Positions 18,155-25,441 of a stretch of DNA of 32,000 bases are shown here, piece after piece. The translations under genes and the position numbers were made by a program. This DNA is from Breznakia blatticola (GTDB lineage: Bacteria > Bacillota_I > Bacilli_A > Erysipelotrichales > Erysipelotrichaceae): positions 82,286 to 114,285 of the forward strand of contig NZ_SODD01000003.1 in NCBI RefSeq assembly GCF_004365815.1, read 5' to 3'. Position 1 is the first letter of the stretch; every line of letters begins with the position of its first letter. The notes beneath the pieces were generated by a model that was given only the letters and a program-made list of their open reading frames with translations, was not told where the DNA came from and made no database searches.

Positions 18155-18583
18155 TTAATCATCTATAATTACTGTTTCTTCAGTTATTATTTGTTGTTTA
18201 TTTTGATCAGTATCACTAATGTATTGTGCACTAAAAAACACCATCATAAAAACATATAATAAAACGATCACTGCTAATGTAATACCAACAACTTTCCATA
18301 TGCGTCGTGAGCGTCGATTTTTAATTGCAAGTTGCTCATTTATTCTAGATAGTTGTATTGCTATATCATCCGCAGACTTTTCATTTTCAACTGATGCACC
18401 AAGCAATTCACTAACAGACACATCTAATATTTCTGCAAGACGAATTAATGTATCCGCATCTGGCACAGATAAGTTTTTCTCCCATTTTGAAATTGTTTGT
18501 CTGACTACATGAAGTCTGGTTGCTAATTCCTCTTGCGAAAAACCATTTTGCTTTCTAAGGTTTTTTAGATTCTCACTAAACAT
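18155..18583 (-). CDS. XRE-family HTH regulator with C-terminal transmembrane anchor
   Basis: N-terminal HTH_3 pattern LKNLRKQNGFSQEELATRLHVVRQTISKWEKNLSVPD. A hydrophobic segment WKVVGITLAVIVLLYVFMMVFF lies near the C-terminus. Confidence 0.85.
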   Translation of the reverse strand: MFSENLKNLRKQNGFSQEELATRLHVVRQTISKWEKNLSVPDADTLIRLAEILDVSVSELLGASVENEKSADDIAIQLSRINEQLAIKNRRSRRIWKVVGITLAVIVLLYVFMMVFFSAQYISDTDQNKQQIITEETVIIDD

Positions 18584-18775: not shown

Positions 18776-19003
18776 CTATTTCTTGAATTTATCTTTCAAT
18801 TCATCGATTTTGTCTTCAGCTGCATCTTTAACATCTCCAGCTTTATCTTTAACATCTTCACCGAAAGATTTCGCTTTATCTGCAACATCTTCACCAGCAT
18901 CTTTTACTTTATCAGCTGCTTCTTTTGCTTTGTCAGAAACATCTTTTCCAAAGTCTTCAGCTTTGTCTTTTAATTCATCTAATTTGTTTTTTAAGTCTGC
19001 CAT
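18776..19003 (-). CDS. Small D/K/A-rich repeat protein (LEA/hydrophilin- or CsbD-like stress protein)
   Basis: 75 aa. Strong RBS AGGAGGAAATATTT-ATG. Imperfect 7/11-residue repeats DKAxxFGxDVx. The plus-strand ORF 18756..19019 is its low-complexity antisense shadow. Confidence 0.7.
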   Translation of the reverse strand: MADLKNKLDELKDKAEDFGKDVSDKAKEAADKVKDAGEDVADKAKSFGEDVKDKAGDVKDAAEDKIDELKDKFKK

Positions 19004-20036: not shown

Positions 20037-20585
20037 ATGAATTCATCATCAAAAGCAATTCAAAAAATGGTTATATCAGCAATGCTAATTGCTGTAGGAA
20101 TTGTGATTCCTATGTTTTCACCAATTAAAGTTGTAATTGAACCAGCTTCATTTACATTAGCTAGTCATGTTGCCATCATGATTGGAATGTTTATTTCACC
20201 AGGAGTTACTGTTGCTGTCGCTATTGGTACAACAATTGGTTTCTTACTTGGCGGATTTCCAATTACCGTTGTTGCTAGAGCAGGTTCACACATCGTCTTT
20301 GCCTTACTAGGTGCTGTATATTTTGCTAAAAAACCAGAAGTTTTATACAACCCTACAAAATGTGTACTAGCATTCTTTGTACTATCATTAATTCATGCAA
20401 TTTGTGAAGTAATCGTTGTGCTTCCATTCTACTTAAATGGACAACCTGTCGATAACTTCTACTATGTTGTATTTGGTTTAGTTGGTGTAGGAACAGTGGT
20501 TCACTCAATGGTGGATTTCTTTATTGCAAGAGCTGTATATCAACTGATTCCACAAGCTAAAACTGCACGCACAAAAATTGCGTAA
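20037..20585 (+). CDS. ECF-transporter S-component-like membrane protein (substrate unknown; NiaX-like is a guess)
   Basis: 182 aa, about 5-6 TM segments, no signal peptide. Size and topology fit solitary vitamin-uptake S components. RBS AGAAGGAG. Confidence 0.55.
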   Translation: MNSSSKAIQKMVISAMLIAVGIVIPMFSPIKVVIEPASFTLASHVAIMIGMFISPGVTVAVAIGTTIGFLLGGFPITVVARAGSHIVFALLGAVYFAKKPEVLYNPTKCVLAFFVLSLIHAICEVIVVLPFYLNGQPVDNFYYVVFGLVGVGTVVHSMVDFFIARAVYQLIPQAKTARTKIA

Positions 20586-20590
20586 ATCAT

Positions 20591-20616
20591 ATCCCACATA
20601 TGTGGGATTTTTTTAT
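20591..20616 (+). terminator. Intrinsic terminator after the S-component gene
   Basis: ATCCCAC-ATAT-GTGGGAT hairpin followed by TTTTTTTATTT. Confidence 0.8.
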
Positions 20617-20639
20617 TTATGTATCACAATTCGAAATCA

Positions 20640-20647
20640 TGTATAAT
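20640..20647 (+). promoter_or_regulatory. Extended -10 promoter (TGTATAAT) of the PAP2-MazG-GIY-YIG/DUF2075 operon
   Basis: TGTATAAT at 20640-20647. The ATG at 20654 lies 6 nt after the -10 and has no RBS, so the mRNA may be leaderless. Confidence 0.45.
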
Positions 20648-20653
20648 ACATTT

Positions 20654-21475
20654 ATGAAACAAACATTACAAATTATGTTCAAGGAATATAAACTACAAAT
20701 CTTTGTCTTTCTGGTGTTACTAAGTATCTTCACAGTTTTTGATCAACAATTGTGTACACTGCTTTATCACCCGGGAAATATCTATGGTGCTTTCTTTGAG
20801 AAGTTTACTTACTTGCCTGGTTGCTACCTACTATTTCTAAGCACTACGATACTTTATGTACACTACTTCAAGACCAACAATAAAAAATTTCAATATTTAA
20901 CCATGCTTATGTGTACAGTATCCTTTTTTATTACTAGTTACTATTTCTATGAGGCACTTGCAGGTATTGGCATGGTATTACATATCATCCTATCATTGTG
21001 TATTATCTTTGCCTGTATTAAATGGAGGCAATTAGATGCATATGTCAAAACTGCTTGGATTGTTATTTTCACGATACTTGCTGCTTTGCTCACAGTTGAA
21101 CTCTTTAAGATGCTATGGGGTCGTGTTCGTCCATATGCAAATTTGGATAATTCAAGTTATTACACACCTTGGTTCGAATTGAACTTTAACGACTTTAAGA
21201 CCTATTTTGAAAATAGTGATACTACAAAATCATTTCCATCAGGTCACAGTAATTGGGCAACATTAACATTATGCTATTCATTCTACTTTAAGAAACATCG
21301 GAAAGTGGCAATTGCAACATCTGTTATCTATATATTACTAGTAACAACTTCAAGAGTAGTTTATGGAATGCATCATCCTAGCGATGTACTTTGCGGATGT
21401 GCAATTGCTTATACCTATTACTCAATTGCAAAACACAAAGTGAAACACTTTAAACAAACGGAGGTATCCATATGA
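20654..21475 (+). CDS. PAP2-superfamily membrane phosphatase
   Basis: All three PAP2 motifs are present: KMLWGRVRP, PSGHS, SRVVYGMHHPSD. Multiple TM segments. The track start at 20600 lies inside the upstream terminator, so I prefer ATG 20654 (20639 is also possible). Confidence 0.8.
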   Translation: MKQTLQIMFKEYKLQIFVFLVLLSIFTVFDQQLCTLLYHPGNIYGAFFEKFTYLPGCYLLFLSTTILYVHYFKTNNKKFQYLTMLMCTVSFFITSYYFYEALAGIGMVLHIILSLCIIFACIKWRQLDAYVKTAWIVIFTILAALLTVELFKMLWGRVRPYANLDNSSYYTPWFELNFNDFKTYFENSDTTKSFPSGHSNWATLTLCYSFYFKKHRKVAIATSVIYILLVTTSRVVYGMHHPSDVLCGCAIAYTYYSIAKHKVKHFKQTEVSI

Positions 21476-21789
21476 ATGAAATCATGGAAAGACTAAGAAA
21501 ATTCAATCAGGATCGGGATTGGGATCAATATCATCAACCAGCTAATCTAGCAAAGTCTATTGTGATTGAAAGTGCTGAATTACTTGAGTGTTTTCAGTGG
21601 GACAATGATAACTTCAATAAACAGCATGTTGCTGAAGAACTTGCAGATGTTCTATGCTATGCATTTCAATTGGCAGATAGTTTACATATGAACATTACAG
21701 AAATCATGAATGATAAAATAGATAAAAATGCAATTAAATATCCAATTGAAAAAGCGAAAGGTAGTTCGAAGAAGTACAATGAGCTCTAG
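21472..21789 (+). CDS. MazG-like nucleoside-triphosphate pyrophosphohydrolase (small all-alpha, DCTPP1/YpjD-like)
   Basis: 105 aa. Acidic metal-binding helices IESAELLE and EELADVL. The FNQDRDWDQYH N-terminus is typical of the MazG-like family. RBS GGAGG. The ATG overlaps the PAP2 stop (ATGA). Confidence 0.8.
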   Translation: MNEIMERLRKFNQDRDWDQYHQPANLAKSIVIESAELLECFQWDNDNFNKQHVAEELADVLCYAFQLADSLHMNITEIMNDKIDKNAIKYPIEKAKGSSKKYNEL

Positions 21790-23461
21790 TAAGATCAAAG
21801 TAAATCAATATGCGTTTACAATGGATTCCGTAAATGCATTAACAAATAATGCATTTATGAAAAACTGGCCAATTGTATACGTATTAAATGATGATCATAA
21901 TGTGTATATAGGTGAAACTTCCAATGCAATTACACGTATGCAGACACACTTAAAAAGTGATGATAAAAACTATCTAAAGCAAATGAATATTATTACAGAT
22001 GAAGAATTTCATAAATCAGCAACACTTCACTTAGAATCCTTGCTTATTGAATACATGAGTGCAGATACTCATTTTGATACGATCATCAATGGAAATACCG
22101 GACAAAGCCACATGTATTTTCAAAAAGATCATTACGCTCATAAATTTGAGGAATTATGGAGTATCCTAAAAAAGAAACACTTGGCAAATGAACGAATTGA
22201 CCAAATTCGCAATAAAGATTTATTCAAATTTTCACCATATAAGTCATTAACAGAAGATCAATTTGGTACTGTGGATGTTATATTGCAAGACTTAGCACAA
22301 CGTACAAAACATCAAGAACCTCAAACATACCTTATTCAAGGAGAAGCAGGAACTGGAAAAACGGTTTTAGCCATTTATTTAGTTAAACTACTTACCGATT
22401 TATTTGCTGATCGTTTATCACTTGAAGGATTTGCAAGCGAAGAAGTTAATGCACTTAAAACGCTTAAACAAGAAAACAGATCACTCAAAGTTGGTTTTGT
22501 TGTACCTATGTCATCATTACGTAGAACTATTCGTAACGTATTTAAAGACATTCAAGGATTACAAGCAAATATGGTAATTACACCATCACAAGCAACCAAA
22601 GAGAATTTTGATATTCTAATCGTTGATGAAGCACATCGTTTAAAACGAAGAAAAAACCTAACGGGTTATGGTGCCTTCGATGCAACAAATAAACGTTTAG
22701 GTTTAGATGATAATGGAACTGAACTTGACTGGATTATGAAATCTTCAAAATATCAAATTCTGTTTTATGATAAGAATCAATCGGTTCGTCCAACAGATGT
22801 TCGACACGATGAATTCAAGAAAATTATAAATAGAGAAGACCATTTAGATCTCTTCTTATTCTCACAAATGCGTGTTATTGGTGGAGATGTTTATGTTAAA
22901 TACATCAAAGATATCTTCAACAACAACCATCCAAAACCAAAAGAATTTGATGCTTATGATGTTTGTCTATTTGATGATATTGACATCATGATTCAAGCAA
23001 TCAAATCCAAGAATGAAGAACTTGGACTTTGTCGTACAGTTAGCGGATATGCATGGGATTGGGTAAGTAAGAAAGATCAATCCAAACATGATATTACAAT
23101 TGATAACCATTCCTATATATGGAACACTGTAAACGAGGATTGGGTGAACTCAAAAAACTCCATCAATGAAATTGGTTGTATACATACAATTCAAGGATAT
23201 GATTTAAACTATGCTGCGATCATTCTTGGAGAAGATATTAAATACGATCCTGTTCTTCAAAAAATCTATACAGATAAGCAAAACTTTTATGATAAAAAAG
23301 CAAAAGCTGGTGTAACCTCTGATAAAGAAATTGCTTCATACATTATAAATGCTTACATAACGATGTTAACACGTGGAATCCGTGGAACATATCTGTATGT
23401 GTGTGATAAAAACTTACGTGAATATCTTGCTACATTCTTTCCAACATATATAAACAAATAA
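21779..23461 (+). CDS. GIY-YIG nuclease domain fused to a DUF2075-type (Schlafen-helicase-like) DEAH P-loop ATPase
   Basis: GIY-YIG part: WPIVYVL..VYIGET..AITRMQTHL..HLESLLIEY. ATPase part: Walker A GEAGTGKT, Walker B ILIVDEAHRL, C-terminal IHTIQGYDLNYAAIILG and TRGIRGTYLYV. The start at 21779 overlaps the MazG gene by 11 nt (the track ORF starts at 21728). Confidence 0.8.
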   Translation: MSSSKIKVNQYAFTMDSVNALTNNAFMKNWPIVYVLNDDHNVYIGETSNAITRMQTHLKSDDKNYLKQMNIITDEEFHKSATLHLESLLIEYMSADTHFDTIINGNTGQSHMYFQKDHYAHKFEELWSILKKKHLANERIDQIRNKDLFKFSPYKSLTEDQFGTVDVILQDLAQRTKHQEPQTYLIQGEAGTGKTVLAIYLVKLLTDLFADRLSLEGFASEEVNALKTLKQENRSLKVGFVVPMSSLRRTIRNVFKDIQGLQANMVITPSQATKENFDILIVDEAHRLKRRKNLTGYGAFDATNKRLGLDDNGTELDWIMKSSKYQILFYDKNQSVRPTDVRHDEFKKIINREDHLDLFLFSQMRVIGGDVYVKYIKDIFNNNHPKPKEFDAYDVCLFDDIDIMIQAIKSKNEELGLCRTVSGYAWDWVSKKDQSKHDITIDNHSYIWNTVNEDWVNSKNSINEIGCIHTIQGYDLNYAAIILGEDIKYDPVLQKIYTDKQNFYDKKAKAGVTSDKEIASYIINAYITMLTRGIRGTYLYVCDKNLREYLATFFPTYINK

Positions 23462-23464
23462 AGA

Positions 23465-23518
23465 AACAGTCTCCAACATTGTATGACTCTCAAGTTGTAC
23501 GATAAGGACTGTTTTTTT
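23465..23518 (+). terminator. Putative terminator of the three-gene operon
   Basis: AACAGTC ... GACTGTT stem with a long, partly structured loop, followed by T7. Confidence 0.45.
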
Positions 23519-23711
23519 GTCTCGATTTTTGTTTGCAGAACAATCATAACTACTTATTTTATGATTACTTCAAATTCTTTTCCTACCCATTTTTGCTTAT
23601 ATAATTCATAACCAAAACAAATAATCATAAAACTAACATATTGTTCATGTATATTGATGAATCGTATACCCATGAATGATAAAATAGAAAAGGACATAGA
23701 GGAGGACTAGC

Positions 23712-24524
23712 ATGAGTTTAAAAGAACACGCAACAAACGTTCGTAAGAACATCATTGACATGGTCTATGCAGCACAATCAGGACACCCAGGTGGTTCATT
23801 AAGTGGTGCAGACATCATTACTTACTTGTATTTCGATGAAATGAATATCAATACTGATAATGCTTCATCAAACAATCGTGATCGTTTTGTCTTAAGTAAA
23901 GGACACGCTTCACCATTGTTATATGGAATTTTAATGGAGAAAGGTATTATCTCTACTGACTTAATTCCAACATTCAGACAAGTAGATTCAAAACTACAAG
24001 GACACCCAAACATGAATTATGTAGAAGGTGTAGATATGTCTACTGGATCATTGGGACAAGGGATCTCATGTGCAGTAGGAATGGCAATTGCAAATAAAGT
24101 AGATAACTCACCAAACCGAGTATATGCAATGCTTGGAGATGGTGAATGTGAAGAAGGTCAAGTATGGGAAGCAGCTATGGCAGCAGCACACTATAAACTT
24201 GATAATCTATGTGCAGTTGTAGACTTTAATGGACTACAAATCGATGGAAACATTACAGATGTTATGAATCCAACACCAATTGATGAAAAATTTGCGGCAT
24301 TCGGTTGGAATGTTGTACACATTGACGGACATGATTTTGATGACATTCGTCGTGGGTTTGATGAAGCAAGAAATTGCAAAGGAAAACCAACAATGATTCT
24401 AGCAAAAACCACAAAAGGAAAATGTGTAAGTTTCATGGAAGGTGACTATGGATGGCATGGTGTTGCACCAAATAAGGAGCAATACGAAGCAGCAATGGAA
24501 TGTTTATGTGGAGGTAGTAAGTAA
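23712..24524 (+). CDS. Transketolase, N-terminal (TPP pyrophosphate-binding) subunit of a split enzyme
   Basis: 270 aa. SGHPGGSLS, LSKGHASP, GSLGQG and GDGECEEG motifs. RBS GAGGAGG. Confidence 0.92.
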   Translation: MSLKEHATNVRKNIIDMVYAAQSGHPGGSLSGADIITYLYFDEMNINTDNASSNNRDRFVLSKGHASPLLYGILMEKGIISTDLIPTFRQVDSKLQGHPNMNYVEGVDMSTGSLGQGISCAVGMAIANKVDNSPNRVYAMLGDGECEEGQVWEAAMAAAHYKLDNLCAVVDFNGLQIDGNITDVMNPTPIDEKFAAFGWNVVHIDGHDFDDIRRGFDEARNCKGKPTMILAKTTKGKCVSFMEGDYGWHGVAPNKEQYEAAMECLCGGSK

Positions 24525-25441
24525 TGGCAAAAGTAGCAACAAGAGAAGCATACGGAAAAACCTTAGCGAAGTTAATCGTTGAGAAAGATAATGTTATCGT
24601 ACTAGATGCAGACTTAACGAAAAGTACAAAAACAATTGATGCAAAAAATGCAAGAGCTGACCATCACTTCAACATGGGGATTGCTGAAGGAAATATGATG
24701 AGTGTAGCAGCAGGACTTGCAGCAAGTAATAAAGTTGTATACGCATCTAGTTTTGCAATGTTTGCAGCAGGAAGAGCATTCGAACAAATTCGTAACTCTA
24801 TCTGTTATCCAAACCTAAATGTAAAAGTATGTGCGACGCATGCAGGATTAACCGTTGGAGAAGATGGAGCAAGTCACCAAAGTGTTGAAGATATCGCATT
24901 GATGCGTGCAATTCCAAATATGAAAGTATTCCAACCATGTGATGATATTGAAACCGCAGCAATTATCAATGCAGTATATGATATTGATGGACCATGTTAT
25001 GTAAGACTTGGACGTTCTGGAGTCGAAAGAGTGAACTATGAAGACTATACATTTGAACTTGGAAAAGGAGTCATCCTTAATAAGGGAGAAAAAGTTGCCA
25101 TTGTAGCTACAGGAATGATGGTGCAAGAAGCACTAGGTGCAAAAGACTTATATGAAGGAAACCCGACAATCGTCAATATGCCAACCATCAAACCAATTGA
25201 TACAGACTTATTAATTGATCTAGCAAAAACACATGATGTAATTGTGACAATTGAAGAACACAGTATCATTGGGGGACTAGGAGGAGCGGTTGTAGAAGCC
25301 TTAGCAGAACACAACCTATGTCCAGTTGTTTGTATGGGAGTTAATGACACATTTGGAGAATCAGGAAAACCTGCAGATCTATTAAAGAAATACGGACTTG
25401 ATAGTCAAGCTATCGCAAACAAAGTAAATACATATCTATAG
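24524..25441 (+). CDS. Transketolase, C-terminal (pyrimidine-binding) subunit
   Basis: 305 aa. REAYG, GIAEGNM and EDGASHQ motifs. The start overlaps the upstream stop (TAATG). Confidence 0.92.
   Translation: MAKVATREAYGKTLAKLIVEKDNVIVLDADLTKSTKTIDAKNARADHHFNMGIAEGNMMSVAAGLAASNKVVYASSFAMFAAGRAFEQIRNSICYPNLNVKVCATHAGLTVGEDGASHQSVEDIALMRAIPNMKVFQPCDDIETAAIINAVYDIDGPCYVRLGRSGVERVNYEDYTFELGKGVILNKGEKVAIVATGMMVQEALGAKDLYEGNPTIVNMPTIKPIDTDLLIDLAKTHDVIVTIEEHSIIGGLGGAVVEALAEHNLCPVVCMGVNDTFGESGKPADLLKKYGLDSQAIANKVNTYL

Follow-up and report, generated by a model that had tools for sequence, protein, structure and literature searches.

The stretch of DNA analysed here (the window) comprises 32,000 nucleotides (nt) of the genome of Breznakia blatticola (contig NZ_SODD01000003.1, positions 82,286 to 114,285 of the forward strand) and carries a gene whose product, as judged from its motifs and domains, is a predicted DNA-cutting GIY-YIG domain joined to a Schlafen-type helicase motor. 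Our comparative analysis revealed that this nuclease-helicase is one half of a conserved two-gene unit, in which it is translationally coupled to a small pyrophosphatase gene; the stop of the latter overlaps the start of the former by 11 nt. A preceding interpretation of the same DNA (the sequence-only reading) had singled out the larger gene as a candidate single-protein nuclease-helicase immunity gene. The two genes and the parts of the nuclease-helicase are located as follows.

21472 to 21789, forward strand: partner gene for a MazG-like all-alpha nucleoside triphosphate (NTP) pyrophosphatase of 105 amino acids (aa), a homologue of DCTPP1/RS21-C6, recognised by PF12643 and by matches in the PDB
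21779 to 23461, forward strand: nuclease-helicase gene, a fusion of a GIY-YIG domain with a superfamily 1B (SF1B) helicase of the DUF2075 or SLFN-g3 type, 560 aa plus stop
21779 to 22183, forward strand: N-terminal GIY-YIG nuclease domain, aa 1-135, with a core at aa 28-104 that carries Y34, Y43, R53, H57, E86 and N104
22322 to 23407, forward strand: SLFN-g3 (DUF2075) helicase core, aa 182-543, delimited by PF09848 and Foldseek
22340 to 22363, forward strand: Walker A motif GEAGTGKT, aa 188-195, with G191, T192, G193 and K194 invariant
22625 to 22636, forward strand: Walker B motif DEAH, aa 283-286, with D283, E284 and H286 invariant

The longest open reading frame (ORF) at this position spans 21728 to 23461 on the forward strand, and translation from the ATG at 21779 yields the 560-aa protein, the N-terminus of which is aligned with the N-termini of its homologues. 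All motifs quoted in the sequence-only reading were found in this translation: WPIVYVL (aa 30-36), VYIGET (aa 42-47), R53 and E86 in the N-terminal part, and GEAGTGKT (aa 188-195), ILIVDEAHRL (aa 279-288), IHTIQGYDLNYAAIILG (aa 468-484) and TRGIRGTYLYV (aa 531-541) in the helicase part. The helicase assignment was supported by an almost complete match to PF09848 (SLFN-g3_helicase, formerly DUF2075) over aa 182-543 (E=2e-65; 221.9 bits, cut-off 24; positions 2-354 of the 354 in the profile), and the GTGKT, DEAH and C-terminal helicase motifs were invariant or nearly so in an alignment of 95 homologous sequences. The full-length AlphaFold model (predicted local distance difference test, pLDDT, 89; predicted template modelling score 0.87) retrieved SF1B helicases at the top of a Foldseek search, namely Dna2, DSH9, SLFN11, Upf1, ZNFX1, nsp13, RecD and Dda, with the human SLFN11 structures 7zep and 7zel among the top matches. 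The search with the whole model returned helicases only and no nuclease, because the motor masks the small N-terminal domain. Searched by sequence, the PDB yielded nothing for the full-length protein at E<=0.01, NCBIfam gave just sub-threshold RecG and P-loop noise, and Pfam gave no match to the AlbA_2-type Schlafen core in the window protein, whose N-terminus is instead the GIY-YIG domain.

The evidence for the N-terminal nuclease domain comes mainly from the family. PF01541 matched the whole window protein marginally (aa 35-73; 20.2 bits, cut-off 22.6) and the isolated N-terminal domain at 22.7 bits, while 57 of 60 homologous N-terminal domains matched it, the best with an E-value of 6e-9. 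When a profile hidden Markov model (HMM) of the domain was compared with solved structures, T4 endonuclease II, I-TevI and UvrC were the top three matches, with weak E-values (0.006-0.09). Across the 95 sequences, which share only about 47% identity, Y34, Y43, G45, R53, H57, E86 and N104 were invariant, and the tyrosines of the GIY and YIG elements (Y34 and Y43) are 9 residues apart. The AlphaFold model of aa 1-135 (pLDDT 86) adopts a beta-beta-alpha-beta-alpha topology, and its best Foldseek matches were 2lwf and the GIY-YIG domains of UvrC (probability 0.96, target template modelling score 0.62, root mean square deviation 3.2 Å); 2lwf, taken from the N-terminal part of a plant glutaredoxin, is a GIY-YIG domain as well. 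The GIY-YIG identity is thus solid at the family level and far beyond chance. With UvrC, I-TevI and T4 endonuclease II the window domain has in common the fold and the set of catalytic residues, but the sequence similarity is very low (E=0.006-0.1), and it is fused to an SF1B motor, whereas UvrC and other GIY-YIG nucleases carry theirs attached to the UvrC C-terminal half or to a DNA-binding domain. Hence the domain architecture proposed in the sequence-only reading, a GIY-YIG nuclease fused to a DUF2075/Schlafen-type DEAH P-loop helicase, was confirmed by the PF09848 match, the PF01541 matches of the homologues and the fold. The profile-HMM searches it had proposed gave a significant result for DUF2075 and, for GIY-YIG, a marginal one on the single sequence and a firm one for the family; the structural comparison it had called for returned the SLFN11 helicase among the top matches and UvrC for the N-terminal domain.

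The product of the upstream gene matched PF12643 (MazG-like; E=4.6e-19, 68.9 bits, cut-off 27) and, in the PDB, mouse DCTPP1 (6sqw, E=3.6e-17, homologous over its full length) and an archaeal pyrophosphatase (4qgp, E=8e-18). The pocket of DCTPP1 has been described as a base sandwich of Trp47 and Trp73, lined by His51, Phe41, Asp98, Tyr129 and Glu63/66/69/95, with His38 and His51 as the proposed selectivity filter (PMC13291643). Residues were carried over to the partner by a HMMER alignment combined with this description. The metal ligands Glu63, Glu66, Glu69, Glu95 and Asp98 correspond to E33, E36, E39, E56 and D59, and the base-pocket residues Trp47, Trp73, His51, Phe41 and Tyr129 to W17, W43, H21, F11 and Y90. 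Every one of these positions was at least 92% conserved among 77 partner sequences, in which E33, E36, E39, E56, D59, W17, H21 and W43 were invariant. The partner therefore resembles DCTPP1 in its metal ligands, its Trp-Trp base sandwich and the equivalent of His51, and differs in its length (105 aa versus 170), in not conserving the equivalent of His38 and in forming an operon with a nuclease-helicase. Since DCTPP1 hydrolyses deoxycytidine triphosphate (dCTP) and C5-modified dCTPs, and is a pool-sanitising enzyme (PMC13291643), a preference of the partner for cytosine nucleotides may be expected by homology. None of the PADLOC models was matched by the MazG-like partner.

The pairing of the two genes was surveyed in 80 genome loci carrying relatives of the nuclease-helicase at 42-48% identity, from Bacillota, Patescibacteria, Bacteroidota and Gammaproteobacteria, in which ORFs were called and all neighbours clustered. 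One cluster of small proteins (103-138 aa) was present in 75 of the 80 loci, almost always directly upstream on the same strand and in most cases separated by -4 to +5 nt, now and then directly downstream, and all 76 of its members matched the upstream ORF of the window at 38-60% identity. The window's own copy stands outside this cluster, as the ORF filter had removed it for overlapping the longer ORF form of the nuclease-helicase. The pair was present as well in a near-identical Logan contig, in a 74%-identical relative, in all five IMG/VR contigs that carry a relative, in one GenBank contig labelled 'Bacteriophage sp.' and, at 32% identity, on a megaplasmid of B. thuringiensis, where the partner is annotated as 'nucleotide pyrophosphohydrolase'. 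With a coupled MazG-like partner in so many genomic, plasmid and viral copies, the description of the gene as a single-protein immunity gene proved to be wrong. Beyond the partner, no conserved synteny was found among the 80 loci, the next commonest cluster being generic ATP-binding cassette (ABC) ATPases in 18 loci; a conserved housekeeping synteny, which the sequence-only reading had named as evidence against itself, was thus looked for, and only the MazG-like gene recurs. The family is large: at E<=1e-30 it accounts for no fewer than about 960 clusters (50% identity) in a set of 1.84 billion representatives, and its neighbour-joining tree contains several cross-phylum placements.

The dependence of the two genes on each other is unequal, the nuclease-helicase being accompanied by the partner in 76 of 81 cases. 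A candidate generalisation, that the MazG-like clade is always paired, was rejected, as close homologues occur alone: two homologues among those nearest to the partner (60-67% identity) have no nuclease-helicase beside them and neighbour either a DinB-type polymerase or a thymidine kinase, and a third is paired again with a GIY-YIG-DUF2075 gene, with a CBASS operon alongside. Because the closest homologues of the partner can stand alone, the pairing is obligate only from the side of the nuclease-helicase. The lone homologues lie in loci L093 (1-4321) and L095 (4001-4321) of our collection, one by the thymidine kinase in a decayed-looking island of DUF3427, NUDIX and YgjP genes and the other near the DinB-type polymerase. 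The 32%-identical copy of the pair is carried by B. cereus-group megaplasmids (69 Bacillus records); on the B. thuringiensis plasmid poh1 (locus L082, NZ_CP021062.1, 3959-9581) its neighbours are a second, NUDIX-type deoxynucleoside triphosphate (dNTP) pyrophosphohydrolase, a zeta toxin and an HNH endonuclease.

A further feature of the family is a Peptidase_S24 domain at the C-terminus (PF00717, with E-values down to 3e-23), which was found in 34 of 78 homologues (about 44%), these 34 being 670-740 aa long. In an alignment with E. coli LexA and UmuD, these tails retain the glycine of an (A/C)-G site for cleavage in the linker, the serine of G[DE]SMN and the lysine of T[IV]K. Examples of the long form are encoded in L003 (9947-12013), L038 (9995-12187) and L009 (9995-12019), and 31 other loci carry it. 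The domain is absent from the 560-aa window protein, and all Bacillota members, the window protein included, are of the short form, while long and short forms are intermixed in the tree of Patescibacteria and Bacteroidota. In the long forms, self-cleavage at the (A/C)-G site, stimulated by RecA on single-stranded DNA (ssDNA), may detach the tail and thereby release the activity, as the conserved residues would suggest.

Several characterised proteins resemble the nuclease-helicase. In Nhi of S. epidermidis (SERP2475), an N-terminal PD-(D/E)XK nuclease is joined to helicase motifs overlapping with DUF2075 (Bari et al. 2022), which answers in the affirmative the question raised in the sequence-only reading, whether Nhi-type systems have a DUF2075-like core. 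The Nhi-like protein of B. cereus was so named for its Nhi-type organisation (Millman et al. 2022) and has been assigned to the PD-(D/E)XK class in a 2025 preprint; phage escape from it has been reported via loss of a DNA methylase, an observation that concerns a different protein from the one studied here. Both have in common with the window protein an N-terminal nuclease joined to a DUF2075 SF1B core and thus belong with it to the general nuclease-helicase defence class, but their nuclease is of the PD-(D/E)XK type and they are encoded by single genes, whereas the window family has a GIY-YIG domain and a conserved pyrophosphatase partner. In the PADLOC search that had been proposed, relatives matched the Nhi model (PDLC02372) in the helicase region only (E=7e-17) and the window protein did not match it at E<=1, while the model (PDLC02350) of AbiO, a lactococcal abortive-infection protein, was matched by the window protein with E=3.4e-9 and by one relative with E=3.8e-16 over about 300 residues. 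BLAST of the window protein against Nhi-like, of which the first 399 of 611 residues were compared, gave an alignment of the P-loop only (E=0.005). The window protein is therefore not Nhi or Nhi-like, as three defining features fail, namely nuclease class, family match and single-gene status. With AbiO it has the P-loop/helicase region in common, but this match is partial, no match of the GIY-YIG domain to AbiO was seen, and membership of AbiO is not established. Membership of PDC-S14 and PDC-S41 was rejected, since these PADLOC matches are of partial domains. The C-terminal helicase domain of Schlafen group III proteins (SLFN5/11/13/14) corresponds to the window helicase core, as indicated by PF09848 and by the structural match to SLFN11, and the LexA-like switch of relatives may reflect a similar tie to ssDNA or stress during replication; these proteins carry an N-terminal AlbA_2-type RNase core, whereas the window protein is a bacterial GIY-YIG protein with an operon partner and, having no SLFN core, is not a Schlafen protein proper.

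The closest precedent for the two-gene layout is the 'Pyrophosphatase' candidate in Table S2 of Millman et al. 2022, represented by SG192 of B. firmus (a 98-aa MazG-like protein and a 643-aa DUF2075 protein) and SG193 of B. thuringiensis. Like the window pair, it combines a MazG-like pyrophosphatase of about 100 aa with a DUF2075 protein of about 620-640 aa. The two small proteins are 40% identical (E=6e-25) and the ATPase cores 27% identical, but the N-terminal regions do not align; for SG192, as for Nhi-like, the comparison covers the N-terminal two thirds (about 400 residues) of the protein. By motif reading, the N-terminal domain of SG192 looks like a PD-(D/E)XK nuclease, unrelated to the GIY-YIG domain of the window. 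As the partners are homologous and the N-terminal domains unrelated, the pairing of a pyrophosphatase with a DUF2075 protein spans at least two nuclease classes, and it is a pairing that has already been picked out as a defence candidate, not validated. A 2019 NAR paper mentions in passing, without experiment, fusions of DUF2075 to GIY-YIG in some genomes and a DUF2075 NTPase next to DUF3427 enzymes, and a 2025 preprint describes SLFN-g3_helicase plus ResIII proteins that recur in CRISPR loci and may belong to the same family as the nuclease-helicase. The window family is thus an uncharacterised variant of the nuclease-DUF2075 class, with another nuclease and a conserved partner.

Examination of the genomic neighbourhoods of homologues revealed a number of genes of defence systems next to the pair. 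In L001 and L092 a type I-C CRISPR-Cas system lies upstream, and an enzyme composed of phospholipase D (PLD), helicase and DUF3427 domains, followed by a NUDIX gene, lies downstream. Such proteins of about 970 aa, with a PLD nuclease, a superfamily 2 (SF2) helicase and DUF3427 and with a small NUDIX hydrolase after them, were observed at L001 11495-14816 and L092 11730-15018 and also in L008, L041 and L067; by the pair, the DUF3427 enzyme recurs in five loci and the NUDIX gene in seven. DUF3427 is linked to modification-dependent restriction enzymes. Cas9 follows the pair directly in two loci, and other neighbours of defence type were a type I restriction-modification (R-M) system in the 74% relative, CBASS in one locus, and the zeta toxin and HNH genes of the Bacillus plasmid. 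Among 150 immediate neighbours we counted SoFic (3), PDC-S04 (3), PDC-S24 (3), mad2 (3), AriA (2), PtuA (2) and MazF (2), all as raw counts; the AriA and PtuA matches are possibly the same ATPases. YgjP-like, NERD and AbiEii-like proteins were also among the immediate neighbours. Relatives were rare in viral collections, with weak matches in 4 of 50,697 phage records and with 5 of 2.9 million IMG/VR viral contigs, and PHROGs gave no family match past generic helicase, which argues against a phage-encoded family.

In the window itself the pair is preceded by a phosphatase gene and closed by a terminator:

20600 to 21475, forward strand: PAP2 phosphatase gene (PF01569, E=6.7e-22), the stop of which overlaps the start of the MazG-like gene by 4 nt
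23458 to 23520, forward strand: intrinsic terminator, composed of a long hairpin and a subsequent U-run immediately downstream of the nuclease-helicase stop, closing the operon

The terminator folds with -23.9 kcal/mol (z = -4.75), and 0 of 200 shuffled sequences folded as well. At 20591-20608, between a gene for a 182-aa membrane protein (weakly similar to energy-coupling factor S-components) and the PAP2 gene, there is a terminator-like hairpin with a T-run, because of which the transcription unit may begin at PAP2 and not at 20037. The arrangement of PAP2 and the pair was found only in the 98% and 74% relatives and in 0 of 80 other loci. The PAP2 gene and the membrane-protein gene recur only in the two closest relatives of the window and were set aside as lineage-specific; the PAP2 gene probably lies outside the module. 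In the 74% relative (L089, 3-5166) the block of four genes (membrane protein, PAP2, MazG-like, nuclease-helicase) borders on an R-M operon of type I; the flank is a variable region, since in the window a tyrosine phosphatase and trpBA take the place of this operon. No Rfam family or tRNA was detected in scans of the surroundings of the locus. A MazG-like protein 99% identical to the partner is listed by NCBI under 'unclassified Breznakia'. Other observations in the window, the GC content of which is about 33%, include a transketolase encoded by two abutting genes (23712-25441; N-terminal thiamine pyrophosphate-binding half 23712-24524, C-terminal half 24524-25441), a highly charged 75-aa protein with KD/AED-rich repeats (18776-19003, reverse strand), which resembles YtxH weakly and below the cut-off and has a spurious mirror ORF on the opposite strand, and a lone Cro/CI-type helix-turn-helix regulator with a phage CI repressor-like N-terminus (18155-18583, reverse strand), with no other prophage genes nearby.

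The leading explanation of the pair as a functional unit is a two-gene module of nucleic-acid-targeting defence against phages or plasmids, an interpretation that we regard as evenly poised between right and wrong. The pyrophosphatase would hydrolyse dCTP or C5-modified dCTP to the monophosphate, the SF1B motor would load on and move along DNA at the expense of ATP, and the tethered GIY-YIG domain would cut the DNA tracked by the motor. The enzyme activities and the joint action of the two proteins, possibly as a complex, are those predicted from their domains and coupling. The pyrophosphatase might remove phage-type modified dCTP or lower the supply of dCTP; alternatively, it might keep modified nucleotides out of the host DNA, so that the nuclease-helicase would attack only foreign or modified DNA and the host would be spared. 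In long-form relatives the LexA-like domain would add a trigger by RecA on ssDNA; the window protein is of the short form without this switch. The DUF3427/NUDIX neighbourhoods, as well as the escape from Nhi-like by methylase loss, fit a link to modified cytosine and are no proof of it. The defence role assigned to the gene in the sequence-only reading is thus plausible in view of homologues located by CRISPR-Cas, R-M, CBASS, SoFic and AriA/PtuA-like ATPases; in SG192, the nearest relative put to the test, no defence was seen.

A number of observations weigh against the defence interpretation. The neighbours in the window are metabolic or regulatory (trpBA, SulP, tyrosine phosphatase, the split transketolase, histidine phosphatase and an AraC regulator), in agreement with the sequence-only reading, which had described the rest of the window as metabolic, and no defence or mobile-element genes, no integrase and no tRNA were found near the locus. 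Many loci of Patescibacteria have housekeeping neighbours, the neighbour tallies are raw counts, and the neighbour-joining tree broadly follows phylum. DCTPP1 His38, one of the two residues proposed for cytosine selectivity, corresponds to L8 in the window partner, a position that is unconserved. Millman et al. 2022 entered SG192 as 'x' in the column 'observed defense', and the cloning of SG193 was unsuccessful. Finally, no experiment on the family was found in the literature searched, which also contained no characterised system built on the GIY-YIG fusion, as the sequence-only reading had surmised, and no description of an architecture of GIY-YIG-DUF2075 plus pyrophosphatase.

Much of this would suit a housekeeping module of genome integrity, in which the MazG-like enzyme would clear non-canonical cytosine dNTPs, the GIY-YIG helicase would act on DNA that contains them or is damaged, in the manner of UvrC and SLX1, and the LexA-like domain would tie the module to the SOS response in many lineages. 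The metabolic context of the window, the inactivity of SG192 in defence and the frequency of the module amid housekeeping genes in the small genomes of Patescibacteria are consistent with this explanation, as are the close MazG-like homologues (60-67%) that stand alone by a DinB-type polymerase or thymidine kinase, the S24 domain as a classical RecA-responsive module and the nucleotide-pool sanitation ascribed to DCTPP1 (PMC13291643). It is at odds with the finding that the partner is the only syntenic gene, with the recurrent adjacency to CRISPR-Cas, R-M, CBASS, Fic and DUF3427 enzymes, with copies on accessory Bacillus megaplasmids by zeta toxin and HNH genes, with the cross-phylum placements in the tree and with the match of the helicase core to the Nhi and AbiO models, and we consider it the main rival, possible but rather improbable. 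Translational coupling as tight as that of the window, together with the asymmetric dependence of the pair (the nuclease-helicase is almost always accompanied, the partner homologues can be alone), could also point to abortive infection (Abi) or addiction, with a self-toxic nuclease-helicase restrained by the MazG-like protein, through binding or through destruction of an activating nucleotide, and freed by infection or loss of the locus. Neighbours rich in toxin-antitoxin (TA) and Abi genes, and the cloning failure of SG193 as a weak hint of toxicity, go in the same direction. The partner has kept its full catalytic and substrate pocket, however, and therefore looks like an enzyme rather than a mere inhibitor; we regard this explanation, which overlaps the defence interpretation and is not exclusive of it, as unlikely.

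The conserved pairing bears on the proposal of a stand-alone immunity gene of the Nhi type with an unrelated upstream ORF. Its layout, an N-terminal nuclease followed by DUF2075, parallels Nhi and Nhi-like, but the coupled partner in 75 of 80 loci across phyla largely refutes it, and the lack of a PADLOC Nhi match at E<=1, the BLAST alignment to Nhi-like over the P-loop only and the different nuclease class make it very improbable. Many GIY-YIG domains are those of homing endonucleases, and one relative gave a weak PADLOC match to 'HEase'; a selfish homing-endonuclease-like or phage-encoded element is nevertheless barely credible, given that an intron, intein or insertion context is lacking, that the operon partner is a conserved cellular one, that relatives are so scarce in phage records and viral contigs (4 of 50,697 and 5 of 2.9 million, respectively) and that PHROGs recognised only generic helicase.

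The nuclease-DUF2075 proteins validated in phage defence, Nhi and Nhi-like, are bacterial relatives of the human Schlafen helicases, and the window family departs from them in three ways: a nuclease of another class, a DCTPP1-like partner that is almost obligate and a LexA-like switch found in many lineages. Should the family be defensive, and should the right DNA modification have been missing from the phages tested, this would explain the apparent inactivity of the 'Pyrophosphatase' candidate. If the pair is instead a module of repair or sanitation, it would represent a new bacterial pathway for modified cytosine nucleotides. In its boldest form, which we put forward tentatively and would sooner doubt than accept, the defence interpretation describes a widespread, unnamed two-component immune system, in which the pyrophosphatase and the GIY-YIG Schlafen-type helicase discriminate and destroy replicating foreign DNA, possibly with modified cytosine, and which is armed in many lineages by a LexA/UmuD-like domain sensing RecA on ssDNA. 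Such a system would be a bacterial counterpart of SLFN11-type restriction, triggered by replication stress and coupled to control of the dNTP pool. A defensive role would bring together a Schlafen-type motor, the chemistry of the dNTP pool and sensing through RecA in a single compact module, one distributed from Patescibacteria to Gammaproteobacteria.

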